A stretch of DNA of 64,000 nucleotides from a phage: sequence record PZ019084.1. One strand, 5' to 3'. Numbering within the stretch: the first letter of the stretch is position 1; the number at the start of each line of letters is the position of its first letter. Positions 3,453 to 64,000 of the stretch are shown piece by piece. A program made the translations under genes and the position numbers. The notes below the pieces were generated by a model. That model saw nothing but the letters and a program-made list of their open reading frames with translations, was not told the DNA's origin and searched no databases.

Positions 3453-3599
3453 TTAAAAATTCTCGTTAGAGATTAAAACTCGGTAGTCACGTTCTTCTGA
3501 ATTTCATCTTCTTTCGACAGATCTCTCAGTTGTAGACTACCACGTAGAATTGTTCGGTTAACTTATTATTCCGACACCCAATTCATATTATTATTTATA

Positions 3600-3935
3600 T
3601 CACTTATAAAGACACGGAATAGCTTTATAGTGACAGGTAACAAATTTTTGTTTAATTTCTTTTGGCTGCTTAAGACCCAGAGCTACAAAAGGATGCGGAA
3701 CGTTTCGAATTTGACCAACTGGAAGAGAAGTCAAATCACCAACTTCGCAGAAACCTTCAGGAACATCAGGACCAACAGAGTGAATTACACACAGTTCGGG
3801 AACTTCACCTTGAACACGTTTACCGATAATAAGTCCTGATTCTGTAACTTCTTCATCACCGGCTTGTGCAGGTTCAGAAACTAAAATAACATATTCACCG
3901 ACAGCACGAATTGGTAGCTGTTGTACTTCAGACAT
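3600..3935 (-). CDS. 31: gp31 co-chaperonin (GroES analogue for capsid folding)
   Basis: 111 aa, same length as T4 gp31; adjacent to rIII. Confidence 0.85.
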
Positions 3936-3991
3936 CGTTTTTCCTTTTTGTTAACAGATGAGTTAATAATAACAAATAATTCTTAAAGCAT

Positions 3992-4300
3992 TTATTTACC
4001 AATAAATTGAAGCAAATGCTCAACTTTCATACCATTAACGGAAATCAATTTGTTAATAGAAAAACCTCGCCATGCACCAAGTTCAACATCAAATACTGGA
4101 ATCATATCAGTAGATTCTTTCCGAGTAGATTCAGTCAATTTACCGGTTTGCATGGTTGGCATAAAGTCAGCATCGCGAGTACCTTTCATAGTACGAATAG
4201 TACCATCAGACTTTTCAAAAACCACGTTTGAAATACCCATGGACAATTTAGTTTTCAAAATTTCACGAATTGCTACTTTTTGTTCAGTCGTCAGTTTCAT
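3992..4300 (-). CDS. hypothetical early protein (31.1-like position)
   Basis: 102-aa ORF between gene 31 and cd. Confidence 0.5.
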   Translation of the reverse strand: MKLTTEQKVAIREILKTKLSMGISNVVFEKSDGTIRTMKGTRDADFMPTMQTGKLTESTRKESTDMIPVFDVELGAWRGFSINKLISVNGMKVEHLLQFIGK

Positions 4301-17344: not shown

Positions 17345-18171
<827 letters not shown>

Positions 18172-56593: not shown

Positions 56594-56794
56594 TCATTTT
56601 GAATGCTCTATAATTAATTTTAAGGCTTCTTCACTGACAAAAATTTCATCAAGACCTTCTTCTACACCCCAATCAACCACACGAAGCTGATTAGATAAGA
56701 GCTCACATACGAGCTCCTTGTCATAATTTTTAAATAGCTGGTCAATACGTTTCTTGTGGGCTTTCTTAAGTTGTCGTTTATTTAAACGAGCCAT
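56594..56794 (-). CDS. hypothetical protein
   Basis: 66-aa ORF. Confidence 0.45.
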   Translation of the reverse strand: MARLNKRQLKKAHKKRIDQLFKNYDKELVCELLSNQLRVVDWGVEEGLDEIFVSEEALKLIIEHSK

Positions 56795-57312
56795 TAATAA
56801 CCTCGGTCTTGGCGAGCGAAGTTTTCAGCATTTTTCAGATAATAAAGTTTAAAGATTTCTTCAGCCGTAAGACCGAGACCTTGGAACATGTTCAGAACGA
56901 AATGAAGAATATCAATCATTTCGAATTTAATTTCCAACTGGTCTTGTGGAGACAAATCAGTAATTAAAGTTTCACGACGTTCACCATGTTGAGCTTTCCA
57001 TGGCTTCCATACAGCAGATGCATCTTTTTCACCATTGCTCATACCACCAAGAGAAGTCAGAAGTTCGCGGAATTCATCATCAATATAATCTTTTTGATTA
57101 CGCAGCCAATCAACAACTTCGCCTGCAGTAGCCAAATCATCAGGATGACGGTTATATTCAGGTTTATCTTTAGCTAAACGAACCTGCAGAGATTTCTGCA
57201 TATCAAGCATAACCTGCAGCGGGTCTTTTTCATCACCGAGAATATCCCAGTATTCATTTTGAGCTTTATCAGCGCCTTCAATCAGTTGTGAACATTCATT
57301 AAAGTATGCCAT
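56794..57312 (-). CDS. 56: dCTPase/dUTPase (gp56)
   Basis: 172 aa from MAYFNECSQLIEGADKAQNEYWDILGD, matching T4 gp56; the ORF track adds 31 codons upstream. Confidence 0.85.
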   Translation of the reverse strand: MAYFNECSQLIEGADKAQNEYWDILGDEKDPLQVMLDMQKSLQVRLAKDKPEYNRHPDDLATAGEVVDWLRNQKDYIDDEFRELLTSLGGMSNGEKDASAVWKPWKAQHGERRETLITDLSPQDQLEIKFEMIDILHFVLNMFQGLGLTAEEIFKLYYLKNAENFARQDRGY

Positions 57313-57383: not shown

Positions 57384-57584
57384 ATGGTACAAAAATTAAT
57401 GGCACTTGTTAATGCCATAAAAGGTAATAAAAAACGTATAGCTTTTACTATTTCTGCTATGGTAGGAATTTTACTCTGGAATTTTGTTTTATCGCCAATT
57501 GCTATTGCTCATGGTGTTAATATTCCAGTAATTACTCTTGATACATTCGTAGATTTAGCATTTGCTTTAGTTGGGTTAATTTAA
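57384..57584 (+). CDS. small hydrophobic protein on the opposite strand between genes 56 and 61
   Basis: 66-aa ORF with a strong AAGGAGG Shine-Dalgarno 4 to 5 nt before the ATG; predicted transmembrane segments. Uncertain. Confidence 0.4.
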   Translation: MVQKLMALVNAIKGNKKRIAFTISAMVGILLWNFVLSPIAIAHGVNIPVITLDTFVDLAFALVGLI

Positions 57585-58609
57585 ATCTTAGCATATTTAG
57601 ATAGCCGCATTTTAGCCATCAACCCTTGGGCAATATTATTTTTCATATATTCCATAATTTGTTCAGGGGTTGCACCTTCCTTTCTAATCATATCATTAAC
57701 ATCTTTTGATTTCCAGGGAGATTTGTCCCAAAACATAACCCTTTCTCCTGCATCAACCAATTTAGTCATTCGTTTAATAGTGTCAGGGTGACGAGGTTCA
57801 TTATCTAAAACCCACACACGTCTATCTTTAAATGGAACAATTTCTAGGTCTAATTGACCACCCGTAATAGCTATACCATTTTCAATAAAAAGTGAATCTA
57901 TAGGTCCTTCTAGAACATATACATCACCATCTTTGACTCGTTCAACTCCATAGATTTTTGTTGCCTCAGGATAAGCTTTGATGGTGATATATTTTTGAGG
58001 AGCATCTTTCTTTAATGCACGTCCTTGAAAAGACTCAGCTTTTCCATTAGCATTATAAATTGGAATAACAAGACGAGGCTCAGGTATTTCCTTTTTATAT
58101 GTTCCTGGCGCTATACTATTAACTAATTTAGGCCATTCGGTTGTAAACCAAAGATATTTCCATTTATCCTTTGGAATACAACGAGCTTTTACGTATTTTA
58201 TAATTGGATGGTCTTCCGTCAGTTTATCTAATCTAATGCATGACGGAAGAGATTTAATTATTTTCTTCTCAGGTTGTTTAGGAAGTTCTTTAGGTTTTTC
58301 TACTGGACGACTTTTACCTTTTTCTTTTCTTATTTCAAAGATATACTCACGATATAAATCAGGTTCAAACTCCTTTAAATATATTCCGATTGGTGCATGA
58401 TAGTTGCAGTTATAACAATGAATATTTCCTTCATTATTATCACCATAATACCATCCACGGGCTTTATTTTGGTCGGTTTTTGAATCTCCACAAACGGGGC
58501 ATCTAAACCGTAATTTAAAAGTTGAACTATTATTTACTTGTGCGAATTTAGGTAAATGAGCCAATGCACGGTATGCAAACTCATTATCAATCCAAGGTAT
58601 TGATGACAT
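57581..58609 (-). CDS. 61: gp61 DNA primase
   Basis: 342 aa, same as T4 gp61; N-terminal zinc ribbon (CPVCGDSK...CYNC) and a TOPRIM region. Confidence 0.9.
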   Translation of the reverse strand: MSSIPWIDNEFAYRALAHLPKFAQVNNSSTFKLRFRCPVCGDSKTDQNKARGWYYGDNNEGNIHCYNCNYHAPIGIYLKEFEPDLYREYIFEIRKEKGKSRPVEKPKELPKQPEKKIIKSLPSCIRLDKLTEDHPIIKYVKARCIPKDKWKYLWFTTEWPKLVNSIAPGTYKKEIPEPRLVIPIYNANGKAESFQGRALKKDAPQKYITIKAYPEATKIYGVERVKDGDVYVLEGPIDSLFIENGIAITGGQLDLEIVPFKDRRVWVLDNEPRHPDTIKRMTKLVDAGERVMFWDKSPWKSKDVNDMIRKEGATPEQIMEYMKNNIAQGLMAKMRLSKYAKI

Positions 58610-58611
58610 TT

Positions 58612-58776
58612 TTTACTCTTCTTTTTCTTTAGATTCCTCTTTTTTCTTTTTAGGAATCTGTTCAGGACCTTTATTTACTACAGCACCTGACGTTGTTCCA
58701 GTAGAGATATTTTCAGGATTACCACCCGAATCTCCAGCTACCATATCTTCTTTAATAAATTCTTTATATGTTTTCA
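58612..58776 (-). CDS. small charged protein (54 aa)
   Basis: Hand-translated ORF immediately upstream of gene 61, lysine/glutamate-rich tail. Below the ORF-track cutoff. Confidence 0.35.
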
Positions 58777-58778
58777 TA

Positions 58779-59405
58779 TTAACCTCTATTCATAAAAGCA
58801 TTAAAAATTTGGTCATCAATAGAAACATCTACTTTAGACTGTTTTTCTGACGGTAATTCATATCCACATATTACAATTTTGTGATCAATATCAAAATACA
58901 CAGAAGCAATATGATTAATGATGTTTTCAGTAAAGTCTAAATCAACATCAATATCTTTTTGACCACAGCCCAAAGGATAAATAATGCGAGTAATTCGATT
59001 ATCTTTAACAAAGATTCCACCGACATACTCTGTGCTGCGTTCAAAATCTACACGCCGACGAAATGAAAAATATTCAGGCTCTTTATGAGCTCTGCTCATA
59101 GGACACAACGAGTAACTAGAATAAGAGATGTCAAATCCTACGCCTTCGATATGAGCCAAAGTGTCATGATTAAACCAATTATAATCGTACGCCAAGTCCA
59201 TTAGATTATAATATGTAAAAGGCACCGGATTAACATCATTAGTCACAAGCATATAATTAGCAACTGCTATAATTTCATTGTTTTTAACGAATACAAACCG
59301 TGATTGATGCGAATGACCTGGACCCGCGTTTTCACGATTAATGATATAACACTGGGCACCTTTATATTTGTATGTATCTTTGCACTTGTGCATTTGATAG
59401 AGCAT
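58779..59405 (-). CDS. hypothetical protein (61.1-like)
   Basis: 208-aa ORF. Confidence 0.5.
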   Translation of the reverse strand: MLYQMHKCKDTYKYKGAQCYIINRENAGPGHSHQSRFVFVKNNEIIAVANYMLVTNDVNPVPFTYYNLMDLAYDYNWFNHDTLAHIEGVGFDISYSSYSLCPMSRAHKEPEYFSFRRRVDFERSTEYVGGIFVKDNRITRIIYPLGCGQKDIDVDLDFTENIINHIASVYFDIDHKIVICGYELPSEKQSKVDVSIDDQIFNAFMNRG

Positions 59406-59698
59406 TATTCACCTACCACTTCAGCGATGATATTTTTATTATTAAAGTTTTTATCGCAATACAGAACATAATTATACTGCATTACACCACCAGACTTAAG
59501 TTGTTTTTGCACTTCAGCTTTCATTTCAGGACGATCACGCTCAACGATATTCATAATATCGGCTTCAATTTGAGTTTCAACTTCAGTCTGATCTGCAGTC
59601 ATAGACCACTCACACAAATCTTTGTCATAACCCGCCATAGCAGGCTGAGCAACGCAAGAAGATAAAGCAAAAATTGCAGCAAAGATAAATTTTTTCAT
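59405..59698 (-). CDS. predicted secreted or lipoprotein (61.2-like)
   Basis: 97 aa with an N-terminal signal peptide (MKKFIFAAIFALSSC...). Confidence 0.5.
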   Translation of the reverse strand: MKKFIFAAIFALSSCVAQPAMAGYDKDLCEWSMTADQTEVETQIEADIMNIVERDRPEMKAEVQKQLKSGGVMQYNYVLYCDKNFNNKNIIAEVVGE

Positions 59699-59726
59699 GA
59701 TAATCTCCTCAGTAGTTTATGTTTAT

Positions 59727-59756
59727 ATAGTATCTCAATTTCCACTAAAAGTAAAC
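59727..59756 (-). promoter_or_regulatory. T4-type early promoter (GTTTAC-N18-TACTAT)
   Basis: Minus-strand motif match. Confidence 0.55.
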
Positions 59757-59758
59757 AG

Positions 59759-60058
59759 TTATTTTAAAACTTCTGCATAATCACATGTTACAAACTGTTT
59801 CTCTAACTTGACGATTTTACGAAAGTATCTTTTGCATTGGCGAATCTGTCGCTTCGTAGGGCGCACAGCAAACTTAATAAATTCCACTCGACCAAATGGA
59901 GGACTTTCTTCTGCTGGAATATCTAACACCAATTCCCACGTATCTGCAATAAGTGCTTTGAATTGAGTATTTTTCCTGACGTTATACGGAGTAGGTTTAA
60001 ATAAAACGATATGCATATTATCCTCGGCAATCCACTTCACATACTTTCTTGTCATCAA
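59759..60058 (-). CDS. hypothetical protein (61.4-like)
   Basis: 99-aa ORF. Confidence 0.45.
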   Translation of the reverse strand: MMTRKYVKWIAEDNMHIVLFKPTPYNVRKNTQFKALIADTWELVLDIPAEESPPFGRVEFIKFAVRPTKRQIRQCKRYFRKIVKLEKQFVTCDYAEVLK

Positions 60059-60200
60059 TGAAAGCTTTAACTAGCGCTTTATTAACTTCAGCATATTGAG
60101 TAGTAGCCCATTGAACGTCATCTTTCATCATTGTGATTTCTTTAGTAAACATGCTTTCATTCTTAAACCACCCCATAAAAACTACCTTTACCAATTCCAT
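60018..60200 (-). CDS. dmd: Dmd antitoxin (inhibitor of host RnlA/LsoA mRNA endoribonucleases)
   Basis: 60 aa, the size of T4 Dmd, adjacent to gene 41 with its own early promoter. Confidence 0.75.
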   Translation of the reverse strand: MELVKVVFMGWFKNESMFTKEITMMKDDVQWATTQYAEVNKALVKAFIDDKKVCEVDCRG

Positions 60201-60229
60201 AAAAATCTCCTCATTTAACCAACAAGACT

Positions 60230-60259
60230 ACTATACCATAGTCTTGTCAGCTTGTAAAC
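60230..60259 (-). promoter_or_regulatory. T4-type early promoter for dmd (GTTTAC-N18-TATAGT)
   Basis: Minus-strand motif match. Confidence 0.55.
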
Positions 60260-61686
60260 TAAAATTTTAATTCATTCGCTAAAGCATCTAACTGAGCTCG
60301 AGCGGATTCGTTTCTTTGATAACGATTCTGCTCAGCCTGAATCTGCTGTGAACCTGCTACTTCGTTCACTTCGGTTGGAGTAGAATCTTGTTCAATTTCT
60401 ACCCATTTCTGATTTCCTTTTTGAACACCCATTAAAAACTTATTCCATTTATTCTTATCACCGTATCGTGATTTGATTTGCTTAATGAGTTGTTGTTCAG
60501 CAGCTGCTAACTCCTCGGTTTCAATGACCGCAAGCATAAAATCGGCTGTTGCTGGAAGACCGGCAGATTCTGCAATATCGCTCATGTTAACATCAGAAGA
60601 ATCCCAAGCTTGCTTACCAACCTGTGCTGCAGTCCAAAGAACAGTTTCAGTTTCAACAGCCAGAGCACGCAATTCTTCTGCGATGGCTTTAACAGTTGTG
60701 TAACTATTTTCTGAGTAAACTCTGATGCGGCAAGATTTACAAATACCCAGATAGTCAACAATAATGATTGTTGGAACAAAATTCTTCTTGAGCTTTAATT
60801 CATTTAAAAGCGACCGAAATGTATTAGCGTCTGCTCCACCAGTAGGATATTGCTTAACGATTAAACGACCGAGAGTAGATTTCTCACGCCATTTTTCCAT
60901 CTTTCCTTTATACTCAGCGTAAGAAATATGCCCATCATCAATGTCATCAAGAGAAACATCAAGCATATTAGCATCAATACGCTTAGCACAGACTTCTTCT
61001 GCCATTTCCATGGAAATGTAAAGAACATTATGTCCGAGCTGCAAATAATCTGCTGCCAATGAACACAGACCTAATGACTTACCAACGTTAACACCAGCCA
61101 TTAAAACGTTCAGTGTTCCAGTTTCAGCTCCGCCTTTAGTAATTTTATTTAGAATTTTGAGTTTAAATGGAACCTTACGAGCTTTATTCATATAAGATAG
61201 CCAACGTGCTTCGTAGTCATCCATCCAATCATGACCAACGTAACTATCAAATGAAATTGATAATGCTTGGCGCATGATGTCAGGAATAGCACCTACATCT
61301 GGCATTTTCTTATTTCGTTTTTCCGGAGGAAGCTCAGCATTGGTTTGAATTTCAATTATTTTAGATGTGGCGTTAAACATCGCCCTTTGCTGAACATATT
61401 TTTCTGTTTCTTTTACTAACCAGCTGTGGTCTTCTGGAGAATCGGTTAGTTTCGAAATAAGTGTTTTTACACCAGAATATTCTGTTTCAGTAAATGAACT
61501 ATTTTCTAACGCAACATTTAACGCATTAATAGATGGAACGCTATGGTACTCATTAACATGAGATTTAATTAATTTGAATGTATTTTTAGCTGGACCACTT
61601 TCAAAATATTCTGAATCCATATATGGCCAAACTTTTGAAAAATAAGCTTGATCAAATATGAGATGAGAAAGAATAATTTCTACCAC
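60259..61686 (-). CDS. 41: gp41 replicative helicase (DnaB-like)
   Basis: 475 aa, same as T4 gp41; Walker A GVNVGKS. Confidence 0.9.
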   Translation of the reverse strand: MVEIILSHLIFDQAYFSKVWPYMDSEYFESGPAKNTFKLIKSHVNEYHSVPSINALNVALENSSFTETEYSGVKTLISKLTDSPEDHSWLVKETEKYVQQRAMFNATSKIIEIQTNAELPPEKRNKKMPDVGAIPDIMRQALSISFDSYVGHDWMDDYEARWLSYMNKARKVPFKLKILNKITKGGAETGTLNVLMAGVNVGKSLGLCSLAADYLQLGHNVLYISMEMAEEVCAKRIDANMLDVSLDDIDDGHISYAEYKGKMEKWREKSTLGRLIVKQYPTGGADANTFRSLLNELKLKKNFVPTIIIVDYLGICKSCRIRVYSENSYTTVKAIAEELRALAVETETVLWTAAQVGKQAWDSSDVNMSDIAESAGLPATADFMLAVIETEELAAAEQQLIKQIKSRYGDKNKWNKFLMGVQKGNQKWVEIEQDSTPTEVNEVAGSQQIQAEQNRYQRNESARAQLDALANELKF

Positions 61687-63291: not shown

Positions 63292-64000
63292 TTAATCAAC
63301 TGCTATTGGATGAATAGCATTAAACTTATGAAACGCTTCTGATTTTTCTTTGCGCGAAACACACATACGAAGAACCTTTAATGGCTCGTCTTCTTCACCT
63401 AACGATTTTCTCTTTTCAATATTCGATGTTTTCCAACGAGCTTGCTCTGGAAACTCTCTATTGATTTGCTCAAGAGCTCTATTATGTTTTGAATTACTAC
63501 GAATTGAACTACATCCACCGGGAGCCTGTGCTTTTCCAGATACAACCAGATATTTGAACAAAGCCAAATGCGGATAACCTTGATTAATTAAATTGAGAAA
63601 TGCATACATATCTTCGCATAAATCAATTTTTCCATACCCAATTTGTTCTGTTGTAAGTTTTCCAAGGTCATACCAGGTATTCGTGAATCCATATGAATTT
63701 TCACGATAATTACCCCAAGATGAAGTAATTTTAAAAATTGGTAGACGAGCATGACCATGATAATACCCACAATCCATGGCATCTTCAACGTATTGAATCA
63801 ATTCATAGAACTGTTCACGAGTTAATTGATTAATTTTATCTACGCAGCGACGATCATCTTTCTTTCGCATTGAACTCATACGAATAGTAGTATCATCATC
63901 AATCATCCAGATTCGTTGACCTGCATACATATCAGTAATTGCTTTACGAGTACCAGCAATTCCGTTAACATCATCAGGAATAGTTATAATTTTAGCTCTA
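63292..64000 (-). CDS. glycosyltransferase-like protein in the T4 beta-gt position; stop at 63292, N-terminus beyond the window end
   Basis: Frame open to position 64000; DDD acidic motif (IWMIDDD); no resemblance to my recollection of T4 beta-glucosyltransferase. Confidence 0.4.
   Translation of the reverse strand, partial: RAKIITIPDDVNGIAGTRKAITDMYAGQRIWMIDDDTTIRMSSMRKKDDRRCVDKINQLTREQFYELIQYVEDAMDCGYYHGHARLPIFKITSSWGNYRENSYGFTNTWYDLGKLTTEQIGYGKIDLCEDMYAFLNLINQGYPHLALFKYLVVSGKAQAPGGCSSIRSNSKHNRALEQINREFPEQARWKTSNIEKRKSLGEEDEPLKVLRMCVSRKEKSEAFHKFNAIHPIAVD

Follow-up and report, generated by a model that had tools for sequence, protein, structure and literature searches.

A T4-type accessory-gene island between genes 41 and 61 of a Tequatrovirus phage, with a proposed prohead route for the small protein gp61.1

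The 61.x region of bacteriophage T4 was labelled a possible 'anti-TA island' in 2022 (Srikant, Guegler and Laub; PMC9391042). T4 Dmd is an inhibitor that binds RnlA/LsoA-type RNase toxins. T4 TifA is a protein of 85 residues, and ToxN is bound and inhibited by the protein, not by RNA; dmd and 61.4 are described as being under an early promoter (PMC9391042). AdfA is able to bind and neutralise DarT1 when it has His at the position corresponding to RB69 residue 164 (PMC11257639). Spackle is a periplasmic inhibitor of the gp5 tail lysozyme that acts in superinfection exclusion and contains a disulfide bond between Cys29 and Cys81; it is described as an early gene product (PMC7677548).

Two T4 systems concerned with the head are also relevant to this locus. 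The N-fist of the capsid protein gp23 is defined in PMC7136217 and PMC9958956, and in the prohead before its expansion, gp23 residues 66–105 lie in the interior, probably at the scaffold (PMC9546572). The second system comprises the internal proteins IPI, IPII and IPIII, which have a capsid-targeting sequence, undergo processing by gp21 and enter the host with the injected DNA; IPI* has an anti-restriction function. The capsid-targeting sequence consists of the first 10 residues, and positions 4, 7, 8 and 10 are critical (PMC9026906).

The window analysed here is the whole stretch of 64,000 nucleotides of phage DNA in the record PZ019084.1. Its source is a T4-like phage (Tequatrovirus); many genomes of this genus are 98% identical to it at the DNA level. 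Positions 58613–60200 on the minus strand are colinear with T4 61.1, 61.2, sp (61.3), 61.4 and dmd, and the island is flanked by gene 41 (helicase) and gene 61 (primase), with the order and sizes exactly as in T4. The island proteins are 96–100% identical to the T4 counterparts. Pfam matches were obtained to Dmd, DUF7279, T4_Spackle and AdfA, and PDB matches for Dmd and Spackle. All five island genes are under purifying selection (dN/dS against T4 of 0 to 0.09). The features are as follows.

57581..58609, minus strand: gene 61 (primase), downstream flank, 98.0% identical to T4 gp61
58613..58777, minus strand: gene 61.1, 54 aa, 96.3% identical to T4 gp61.1, matches phrog_1823
58779..59405, minus strand: adfA (61.2), 208 aa, anti-DarT factor A; the start overlaps the sp stop (TAATG)
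59405..59698, minus strand: sp (61.3), Spackle, 97 aa, a 22-aa signal peptide and a 75-aa periplasmic helical protein
59727..59755, minus strand: promoter-like site upstream of sp (TTTACT, 17-nt spacer, TACTAT), weaker
59759..60016, minus strand: tifA (61.4), 85 aa, ToxN endoribonuclease inhibitor (function from T4)
60018..60200, minus strand: dmd (61.5), 60 aa, 100% identical to T4 Dmd
60217..60252, minus strand: 15-bp RNA hairpin between the gene 41 stop codon and dmd
60230..60258, minus strand: early promoter of the dmd–tifA operon, sigma-70 type (TTTACA, 17-nt spacer, TG-extended TATAGT)
60259..61686, minus strand: gene 41 (replicative helicase), upstream flank, 99.4% identical to T4 gp41

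Dmd matches PF17587 over residues 1–60 (E 1.6e-46) and PDB 5hy3_B, 'Antitoxin Dmd'. Since the sequence is identical to T4 Dmd, it is safe to assume by analogy that the window Dmd inhibits RnlA/LsoA toxins. An earlier sequence-only reading of the window had recognised dmd and had given it an early promoter of its own, and both points are borne out. In the consensus scan, the promoter (read from 60258 to 60230) shows 10 of 12 consensus matches and the TG extension, and the gene 41–dmd intergenic region is 96.6% identical to T4. The hairpin in this region extends over the −10 element of the promoter and lacks a U-tract. Its predicted folding energy is −18.9 kcal/mol (z = −4.6), none of 200 shuffled sequences folds as well, and the hairpin is kept in T4 with one change.

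The tifA gene is translationally coupled to dmd. Its start is located 1 nt past the dmd stop (TAA-T-ATG), and GAGG is present in the last dmd codons. Four ORFs between dmd and gene 61 had been listed previously; those of 54, 208 and 97 aa stand, whereas the one of 99 aa is the 85-aa gene 61.4. The 99-aa form, starting from TTG at 60058 inside dmd, was dropped in favour of the ATG form at 60016, because the latter has the GAGG ribosome-binding site and is annotated and tested in this form in T4. TifA is 98.8% identical to T4 gp61.4 with I83V as the sole change, and it matches PF23945/DUF7279 (E 1.8e-20) and phrog_2375. The central basic cluster is RPTKRQIRQCKRYFRK. The window allele is of the T4 type with a C-terminal extension, which is absent from RB69 TifA, and by analogy with T4 TifA it is expected to inhibit ToxN. 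In the first of two proposed units, the early promoter would drive dmd and then tifA, and the two products would act in the cytoplasm, each binding host RNase toxins directly.

The second proposed unit would run from the weaker promoter-like site through sp, adfA and 61.1 and on into gene 61, which is probably its last gene. The site scores 8 of 12, below the scan threshold, and was read from the sequence. It has a GTTTAC −35 element, typical of T4 early promoters, in a region 96.7% identical to T4, and it is presumably the sp promoter.

Spackle is 95.9% identical to T4 Spackle, and K53E is the only change in the mature protein. It matches PF25676 (E 1.3e-44) and the PDB entries 6x6o and 7cn6, and residues 23–97 match the 7cn6 chain residues 1–75. 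As noted before for one of the ORFs, a signal peptide is present: the N-terminus MKKFIFAAIFALSSCVAQPAMA followed by GYDK is of the Sec type. The L-S-S-C stretch of this signal resembles a lipobox, and a lipoprotein reading was dropped because the solved mature protein begins at residue 23. Both Cys29 and Cys81 are present, and the residues that contact the gp5 lysozyme (S32, M33, T34, A35, Q37 and N76) are all identical. By analogy with T4, the exported protein would act on phages that arrive later, by inhibiting the lysozyme domain of their gp5 tail spike. The function of the window Spackle would thus be superinfection exclusion and not an action on toxin-antitoxin systems.

AdfA is 96.2% identical to T4 gp61.2 and matches PF23813 with E 1.6e-135 (residues 1–208 of 211 profile positions). 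Its His165 aligns with RB69 Arg164, and His is the residue found in T4. The alignment shows the window AdfA to be of the DarT1-binding allele type. The protein is thus predicted to bind the DarT1 DNA ADP-ribosyltransferase, the His of the window allele permitting the binding. In the PDB sequence search, neither TifA nor AdfA gave a match at E up to 1. Deletion of adfA from T4 is without phenotype on DarTG1 hosts (PMC11257639), and native T4 TifA overcomes chromosomal toxIN only, not plasmid-borne toxIN (PMC9391042). Therefore, the window TifA and AdfA alleles may be tuned to other toxin variants.

Gene content, order, orientation, overlaps and the promoter region are all as in the T4 61.x region. 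The differences are substitutions: eight in AdfA, four in Spackle (three of them in the signal peptide), two in gp61.1 and one in TifA. In the wider neighbourhood, the window lacks dam and segA of T4, and its glucosyltransferase is of the T2/T6 type. In the RB69 island, imm and imm.1 are inserted and additional ORFs are present, TifA is shorter and AdfA is of the Arg allele. This layout shows that the island is plastic.

Several other elements were considered. A plus-strand ORF of 97 aa (59372–59665), antisense to sp, was taken as a chance ORF; the family search covered the minus-strand ORF only. The late-promoter motif TATAAATA is absent from 57.5–60.3 kb. MotA-box-like TGCTTTA sites at 59663–59669 and 60280–60286 are unconvincing as middle-promoter elements, because the motif is common in the window (78 sites against 59 expected).

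These results make it very probable that the locus as a whole is a T4-type accessory-gene island of five minus-strand genes in two early units, with functions derived from T4 and a proposed prohead route for gp61.1. The functions of Dmd, TifA, Spackle and AdfA are carried over from T4 experiments to proteins of 96–100% identity. The sequence-only reading had associated the corresponding T4 region with toxin-antitoxin counter-defence, which agrees with the published label, and its observation of the ORFs is confirmed. Its interpretation is partly supported. It had regarded the ORFs as uncharacterised, whereas 61.4, 61.2 and 61.3 are TifA, AdfA and Spackle, all with published functions. As to the counter-defence roles proposed for them, TifA and AdfA are known anti-toxin proteins, Spackle belongs to superinfection exclusion, and only 61.1 is still a candidate. 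For Spackle, the homology search returned an established unrelated function, an outcome that the sequence-only reading had itself named as refuting its proposal. As originally posed, the finding is a rediscovery of the T4 dmd–tifA–sp–adfA island in a close relative of T4, and contains nothing new. The cluster consists of already known T4 genes for counter-toxin action and for exclusion of rival phages, and gene 61.1 is one modest new lead.

The adfA stop and the 61.1 start are coupled (TAA-T-ATG), GAGG serving as the ribosome-binding site, and gene 61.1 ends 3 nt before the gene 61 ATG. Its product is divided into three parts.

58748..58777, minus strand: gp61.1 residues 1–10, MKTYKEFIKE, a leader resembling a capsid-targeting sequence and ending in a hydrophobic-x-Glu prohead-protease motif
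58664..58747, minus strand: gp61.1 residues 11–38, DMVAGDSGGNPENISTGTTSGAVVNKGP, paralog of the gp23* N-terminus ('N-fist', residues 66–91)
58616..58663, minus strand: gp61.1 residues 39–54, EQIPKKKKEESKEKEE, Lys-rich tail; its codons include the gene 61 ribosome-binding site

No gp61.1 family was found in Pfam or NCBIfam, and PHROGs has only families of unknown function. On function, virion presence and essentiality, the literature gave two incidental mentions; the T4 head reviews and the core-genome review do not treat gp61.1 in these respects, and no report of virion proteomics or genetics was found in the searchable literature. The sequence is conserved nonetheless. The dN/dS is 0.09 against T4 and 0.07–0.25 across genera where dS can be estimated (two of the eight comparisons are saturated). 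Residues G15, D16, G27 and G31 are invariant in 42 diverse members, and the family forms 51 clusters at 50% identity. By tblastn, gp61.1 was detected in 1397 phage records, compared with 676 for TifA and 492 for AdfA, so that its conservation is much broader than that of these known anti-TA genes. In most of the genera that were examined, gene 61 follows the module directly; in Cronobacter, Krischvirus, RB69 and Acj133, the two are no more than a few ORFs apart. The tail is variable yet basic in other lineages, and aligns weakly with gp23 94–101 (AVMGMVRR).

The long forms in phrog_2086 (~130–165 aa; Pseudotevenvirus, Acinetobacter, Erwinia and other T4-like phages) have the same C-terminal module as gp61.1, preceded by hydrophobic-x-Glu, and their genes precede gene 61, either immediately or with a few ORFs in between. 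They differ in that a ~110-residue N-terminal domain of unknown function takes the place of the 10-residue leader. The RB69 long form is divided between two ORFs. The AlphaFold2 model of gp61.1 (16-sequence alignment; pLDDT 61, pTM 0.19) was of insufficient quality for a fold search. Disorder is predicted for the isolated peptide, which fits a segment that folds only on a partner.

According to HHalign, gp61.1 residues 1–46 match gp23 56–101 in register (98.3% probability, E 2.1e-14), and the homologous gp23 span is at the widest 49–101. BLASTP gave a gap-free alignment to gp23 residues 56–93, and a profile search gave E values of 3.6e-9 and 1e-6 at Z = 1e6. In the PDB, gp61.1 is matched best by gp23, and this alignment is also in register with A66, the mature N-terminus. 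Across gp23 56–101, which includes the prohead-protease site and the N-fist, the ungapped pairwise identity is 43–45%. The cleavage motif, G-D, N-I-A-x-G, T-S-G-A and G-P are common to both proteins, whereas gp61.1 has Ser-Gly-Gly in place of the invariant His-Gly-Tyr of gp23. The entire HK97-fold body of gp23 (P, A and I domains) is absent from gp61.1. The Pfam family Gp23 (PF07068), which starts at gp23 residue 88, has no match to gp61.1. The database label 'major capsid (domain-containing) protein' on some 61.1 homologs is misleading, as gp61.1 has 54 residues and no HK97 body, and it is not a capsid shell protein.

Co-variation between the 61.1 module and the N-fist of gp23 from the same phage was analysed in 10 phages of nine genera. 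The summed identity of own pairs was 150, compared with a mean of 147.4 in permutations (P = 0.23), and the power of the test is low because the N-fist is nearly invariant. A first impression of co-variation in a V/I column, obtained with six phages, failed in the 10. No sign of gene conversion or co-evolution between the module and the N-fist was observed in these 10 phages.

The leader of gp61.1 is identical at eight of 10 positions to the capsid-targeting sequence of IPII and IPIII (MKTYQEFIAE). The required residues are retained at all four critical positions: an aromatic residue (4), Phe (7), Ile/Leu (8) and Glu (10). When 1140 ORFs were scanned with a permissive regular expression for such leaders, the motif proved rare, and the only hits were 61.1 homologs, IPII, IPIII, one gp24 and three others. 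Among the 51 family clusters, the N-terminal part ranges from 10 to ~115 residues or more, and hydrophobic-x-Glu is found just before the conserved module in the diverse members inspected. The residues that precede the predicted cut in the long-form homologs show no similarity to the capsid-targeting sequence.

The protein gp61.1 and the T4 internal proteins have the N-terminal decapeptide in common, and the T4 allele of gp61.1 shares MKTFKEF with IPI. Both kinds of protein are small and accessory, and their genes lie outside the head-gene cluster. The differences lie in the remainder of the protein: the mature part of gp61.1 has only 44 residues and, instead of being unique, is a homologue of gp23. 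Whereas gp61.1 is conserved across genera, the internal proteins are hypervariable. The internal proteins are also basic, whereas the mature peptide of the window gp61.1 is acidic (pI 5.0; 8.3–10.3 in other lineages) and no late promoter was found for its gene.

From these similarities, we infer that gp61.1 is a prohead-targeted peptide cleaved by gp21. Residues 1–10 would act as a capsid-targeting sequence and lead the protein into the scaffolding core of the prohead. Then the prohead protease gp21 would cut after Glu10, between IKE and D, at the position aligned with the gp23 cut between LTE and A after Glu65. The released 44-residue peptide would be a free copy of the N-fist with a Lys-rich tail. 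The predicted uncleaved N-terminus is M/KT(F/Y)KEFIKEDMVAGD..., and the predicted mature N-terminal peptide is DMVAGDSGGNPENIS(I/T)GTTSGAVVNK, with Asp11 first. The mature peptide could fill vacant N-fist docking sites beside the gp24 vertices or the portal; alternatively, it could be retained in the head and injected with the DNA like the internal proteins. At the interfaces of gp24 pentamers with hexamers and around the portal, five gp23 subunits have disordered N-fists. We tentatively propose, as one possibility, that the family in ~1400 phage genomes consists of 'free N-fist' peptides acting in trans, by occupying docking sites, by modulating gp23–scaffold contacts or by injection. Several points count against this route. 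Without a late promoter, gp61.1 made early would have to persist until head assembly, and the cleaved peptide of 4.6 kDa might escape via the capsomer pores, as scaffold fragments do (PMC9546572). The acidic mature peptide of the window allele, the lack of co-variation with the N-fist in the 10 phages and the dissimilar residues before the predicted cut in the long forms also speak against it.

Other explanations of gp61.1 have to be weighed against the prohead route. In the sequence-only reading, the four ORFs beyond dmd were new candidate inhibitors of toxin-antitoxin systems. Anti-TA factors are enriched in the region, and the authors of the TifA study called other genes there 'attractive anti-toxin candidates' (PMC9391042); gp61.1, small, early and co-transcribed with adfA, would fit. 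However, three of the four ORFs have published functions, that of the periplasmic Spackle being unrelated to toxins, and 61.1 is homologous to a capsid segment and commoner than TifA and AdfA. The sequence of gp61.1 points to the capsid rather than to toxin inhibition, and we regard the proposal as very unlikely. It has also to be considered whether the protein has any function, since 61.1 could be the remnant of an incomplete gene 23 duplication, or a short leader ORF retained solely to couple translation into gene 61. The stop codon close to the gene 61 ATG, the ribosome-binding site of gene 61 in the last codons, the position immediately upstream of gene 61 in most genera examined and the predicted disorder of the isolated peptide are consistent with this. 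However, the dN/dS values, the four invariant residues and the 51 clusters indicate that the amino-acid sequence is conserved and not just the frame, and a lack of protein function is very unlikely.

A cytoplasmic decoy is somewhat easier to accept, though unlikely. An early mimic of the gp23 N-terminus would occupy a host factor or an immune sensor before gp23 appears, for example EF-Tu in Lit/Gol abortive infection or other capsid-sensing systems, and the similarities in the cleavage site and targeting leader would be inherited baggage. Gene 61.1 lies in a counter-defence island, within an early unit with no late promoter, and its product is homologous to gp23 49–101. Capsid proteins are known immune triggers. 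Gol is a 29-residue region within the first quarter of gp23, and ~100 residues of this quarter bind EF-Tu more stably than the Gol peptide does (PMC3014915). On the other hand, none of the four residues on which capsid targeting and processing depend has been lost from the leader. Hydrophobic-x-Glu is kept in the diverse members inspected although the N-terminal part is replaced, which suggests that the cut itself matters and argues against a decoy. Gol, which we take to be at about gp23 residues 93–121, would mostly lie past the similarity to gp61.1, and T4 is still excluded by over-expressed Lit; both points also count against it.

The value of the analysis lies in correct annotation. It names the toxin-antitoxin and exclusion functions carried by this phage, and identifies its AdfA as a DarT1-binding allele. 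Gene 61.1, one among many T4 genes without a function, now has a concrete hypothesis of prohead targeting, gp21 cleavage and N-fist mimicry. If this is true, T4-like capsids or their injected cargo would include a small component previously unlisted, and the gene would give hints at the origin of the capsid-targeting sequence used in T4 protein-delivery engineering.

The main new result is the similarity between gp61.1, the 54-aa product of gene 61.1, and the major capsid protein gp23; the remaining cluster is known. Five minus-strand ORFs are located between the helicase gene 41 (60259-61686) and the primase gene 61 (57581-58609). The T4 reference record has the identical layout (dmd, 61.4, sp, 61.2, 61.1), and the ORF inventory of the sequence-only reading, dmd and four further ORFs, was borne out except for the size of one ORF. 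The 99 aa assigned to 61.4 require a TTG start at 60058 inside dmd, and the ORF has 85 aa from ATG.

60018-60200, minus strand: dmd, 60 aa
59759-60016, minus strand: 61.4 (tifA), 85 aa from ATG (99 aa from the TTG at 60058 within dmd)
59405-59698, minus strand: sp, 97 aa
58779-59405, minus strand: 61.2 (adfA), 208 aa
58613-58777, minus strand: 61.1, 54 aa

The protein identities to T4 are 100% for dmd, 98.8% for 61.4, 95.9% for sp, 96.2% for 61.2 and 96.3% for 61.1, and the five genes show dN/dS values of 0 to 0.09 relative to T4. The 1.8 kb around the cluster shows 98% identity to many Tequatrovirus genomes (EC121, ESh29, the PYps phages and others), and this stretch matches 540 phage records at the megablast level. 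The cluster is the T4 dmd-tifA-sp-adfA-61.1 island in a close relative, real, correctly placed and already known; the region was published as the 'anti-TA island' (PMC9391042). A 97-aa plus-strand ORF (59372-59665), antisense to sp, has the same length as Spackle, the sp product, and is mistakable for the gene; it was taken as a chance ORF.

The early promoter claimed for dmd was found as a TG-extended sigma-70 site, TTTACA-17-TATAGT at 60258-60230 (10/12 matches), and the intergenic region holding it is 96.6% identical to T4. In T4, dmd-61.4 is a two-gene locus under an early promoter (PMC9391042). The tifA start is located one base past the dmd stop codon, and GAGG is present within the last dmd codons. 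Upstream of sp, a weaker promoter-like site (GTTTAC ... TACTAT, 8/12) is the probable sp promoter, judged from its sequence. The sp and adfA frames overlap (TAATG), the adfA-61.1 gap is one base, and the 61.1 stop codon is 3 nt from the gene 61 ATG. Because these genes are tightly packed, a second transcription unit probably runs sp-adfA-61.1-61. A 15-bp RNA hairpin without a U-tract (60217-60252, minus strand, -18.9 kcal/mol, z = -4.6) lies between the gene 41 stop and dmd and overlaps the dmd promoter at its -10 element; T4 has it with a single change. The hairpin is expected in gene 41 read-through transcripts, not in transcripts starting at the dmd promoter.

The 60-aa Dmd, already recognised from the sequence, matches PF17587 (E 1.6e-46) and PDB 5hy3 chain B 'Antitoxin Dmd'. 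Dmd directly inhibits the RnlA toxin, and amplification of dmd-tifA is the evolved route of T4 past toxIN; the 85-aa TifA protein, not the tifA RNA, rescues from ToxN, and ToxN co-precipitates with TifA (PMC9391042). TifA homologs share a central basic cluster, and a C-terminal extension is present in the T2, T4 and T6 alleles and absent from RB69 (PMC9391042). The TifA of the window is the T4-type allele with one difference, I83V. AdfA matches PF23813 over its full length (E 1.6e-135). A His at the site numbered 164 in RB69 AdfA enables DarT1 binding and neutralisation (PMC11257639), and the window AdfA has His at the aligned residue. On DarTG1 hosts, a T4 adfA deletion is without phenotype because the task falls to a second factor, AdfN (gp30.3) (PMC11257639). 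The one ORF said to carry a signal peptide is Spackle (PF25676, E 1.3e-44; PDB 6x6o and 7cn6). Mature Spackle is a 75-residue periplasmic protein with a Cys29-Cys81 disulfide (PMC7677548). In the window the signal, both cysteines and the gp5 lysozyme contact residues (S32, M33, T34, A35, Q37, N76) are intact, and K53E is the sole change in the mature protein against T4. According to the homology search, three of the four ORFs regarded as uncharacterised (TifA, AdfA, Spackle) are characterised proteins. Toxin-antitoxin counter-defence, the role suggested for them, holds for dmd, tifA and adfA, as already published, and fails for the secreted protein, which has an unrelated established role.

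T4 Dam methylase and SegA homing endonuclease have no match in the whole 64-kb window (tblastn). In T4, dam lies in the 56-61 interval and segA in the uvsX-b-gt interval; both are missing here. Gene 56 (56794-57312) is directly followed by a 66-aa hydrophobic ORF (57384-57584, plus strand, PHROGs family phrog_2024), and then by gene 61, with which this ORF is convergent, overlapping its stop by 4 nt. The ORF is annotated in RB69 (ORF029w) and JK08, and is present, unannotated, in T4 (94% identity, T4 record 17738-17935). Beside uvsX, 63292-63930 (minus strand) encodes a beta-glucosyl-HMC-alpha-glucosyltransferase of T2/T6 type, not the T4 beta-glucosyltransferase. The ORF covers only profile positions 75-269/270; therefore its N-terminal quarter is missing, by truncation, frameshift or a different start.

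The first clue to the capsid similarity was a weak 61.1 match inside gene 23 of Acinetobacter phage 133. Residues 1-38 of gp61.1 align without gaps to residues 56-93 of gp23, the identity being 43% with the T4 protein and 45% with that of phage 133. In the whole PDB, gp23 is the top match to gp61.1 (E 0.0085), with gp61.1 residue 11 aligned to the N-terminal residue of mature gp23*. A profile built from 20 homologs of 61.1 detects gp23 with E-values of 3.6e-9 and 1e-6 (nominal one-million-sequence database), and a profile-profile comparison of 42 family members against 10 gp23 N-termini gave 98.3% probability (E 2.1e-14) over gp23 residues 49-101. Some databases label 61.1 homologs 'major capsid (domain-containing) protein'; therefore automated pipelines had picked up the similarity. 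As a function the label is wrong, and the similarity seems so far uninterpreted by anyone.

The prohead protease gp21 strips the first 65 residues of gp23 (PMC9958956). The cut follows L63-T64-E65, and I8-K9-E10 of gp61.1 is aligned at the same place. During maturation of the T4 head, cleavage by gp21 follows the Glu of (L/I)-x-E motifs; LTE in gp23, LRE in gp24 and IAE in IPIII all fit. The N-fist of gp23* (66-91) touches four neighbouring subunits, helps to form the Soc binding site, and is disordered where it faces the portal (PMC7136217, PMC9958956). In the unexpanded prohead, gp23 66-105 is disordered inside the shell, probably on the scaffolding core, and the head-length mutations A66D, A94V and G97S map to it (PMC9546572). 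The N-fist is described for gp23* only; gp24* has an N-arm, without a reported N-fist (PMC7136217, PMC9546572). The gp23 region spanning the cleavage site and N-fist is found in about 1626 phage records. Capsid proteins of cyanophages and Ackermannviridae match gp23 only from about residue 75-85 on, and both groups are absent among the main 61.1 matches (tblastn).

The internal proteins IPII and IPIII begin MKTYQEFIAE, and the gp61.1 leader MKTYKEFIKE has the identical residue at 8 of 10 positions; the T4 allele begins MKTFKEF, like IPI. This decapeptide is an experimentally defined capsid-targeting sequence, with positions 4 and 7 needed for targeting and 8 and 10 for processing (PMC9026906); gp61.1 retains all four. 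A deliberately loose regular expression had 11 hits among 1140 ORFs from 329 kb of sequence: five 61.1 homologs, IPII, IPIII, one gp24, one Cronobacter phage protein, one UvsW.1-like ORF and one obvious false positive. The Cronobacter hit (phage SemperBestia, plus strand) is a hypothetical protein of 261 aa encoded between genes 3 and 2 (MKSFKELLSE...), probably an internal protein; the UvsW.1-like ORF is from Erwinia phage Vettismorki (plus strand, 75 aa, MIDFKEFIYE...). Both N-termini resemble the targeting sequence. Residues 56-65 of gp23, AQAFGSFLTE, share the critical positions 4, 7, 8 and 10 with MKTYQEFIAE of the ipII and ipIII products, and gp61.1 bridges the two. The comparison suggests that the capsid-targeting sequence may descend from the end of the gp23 propeptide.

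No family in Pfam or NCBIfam contains gp61.1; in PHROGs it matches phrog_1823 and the C-terminal part of phrog_2086 (long-form relatives), both of unknown function. The gene occurs in 1397 phage records (tblastn), against 676 for TifA and 492 for AdfA, with Escherichia, Klebsiella, Acinetobacter, Aeromonas, Enterobacter and other hosts. It is located upstream of gene 61 in Tequatrovirus, Mosigvirus, Krischvirus, Jiaodavirus, Mosugukvirus, Winklervirus, Pseudotevenvirus, Biquartavirus and Acinetobacter phages. In most of them it adjoins gene 61; RB69 (Mosigvirus), Krischvirus, the Cronobacter phage and Acj133 have one to three small ORFs in the gap. Across 1.84 billion representative proteins, an exhaustive HMM search gave 51 clusters. 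Short forms (50-70 aa) include many leaders resembling the capsid-targeting sequence, long forms (about 130-165 aa) carry the module C-terminally, and a few reach about 250 aa. In the diverse forms inspected, the module reads [D/E]-M-V-A-G-D-x-G-G ... N-I-A-x-G-x-T-S-G-x-V ... G-P, then a basic tail, and hydrophobic-x-Glu (IKE, LKE, LNE, LFE, VDE, LYE, VTE) directly precedes it although the N-terminal part is replaced.

Several variants were observed. Some long proteins (three noted) run past the basic tail into an extra domain of ~100 aa, opening with a second capsid-targeting-sequence-like stretch (N/G-F-K-Q/A-F-V/M-E), as if fused to a downstream gene bearing its own such sequence. The T6-type gp61.1 (62 aa) is identical through residue 46 and then has a different, longer basic tail (RNLKKKKSKNVINTLD), which points to a frameshift in the run of Lys codons that doubles as the gene 61 ribosome-binding site. 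In RB69 (positions 1818-2284 and 3512-4190 within segment NC_004928 15500-22500), the long form is divided between ORF032c (phrog_2086 positions 1-52) and a 92-aa '61.1', possibly through a frameshift, recoding or an error in sequencing; there, imm and imm.1 (superinfection immunity) lie between sp and tifA, which brings the two exclusion genes side by side.

We propose that the leader would bring gp61.1 into the prohead core and that gp21 would cut after Glu10, leaving a 4.6-kDa peptide, a free N-fist copy with a Lys-rich tail. We put this at roughly even odds. The peptide might occupy N-fist docking sites lacking a cis partner, beside gp24 vertices or the portal, modulate gp23-scaffold contacts, or be injected with the DNA like the internal proteins. 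Several results count against processing: no late promoter was found near 61.1, the mature peptide of the window allele is acidic (pI 5.0, against 8.3-10.3 in other lineages), no co-variation was seen between the module and the N-fist of its own phage (10 phages, P = 0.23), disorder is predicted for the peptide on its own, and no proteomic or genetic data on gp61.1 were found in the searchable literature. The main rival is that gp61.1 might act early, as a cytoplasmic decoy for a recogniser of the capsid protein N-terminus, e.g. EF-Tu in Lit/Gol. As a processed capsid-protein mimic, gp61.1 would be one modest lead from an otherwise known cluster.
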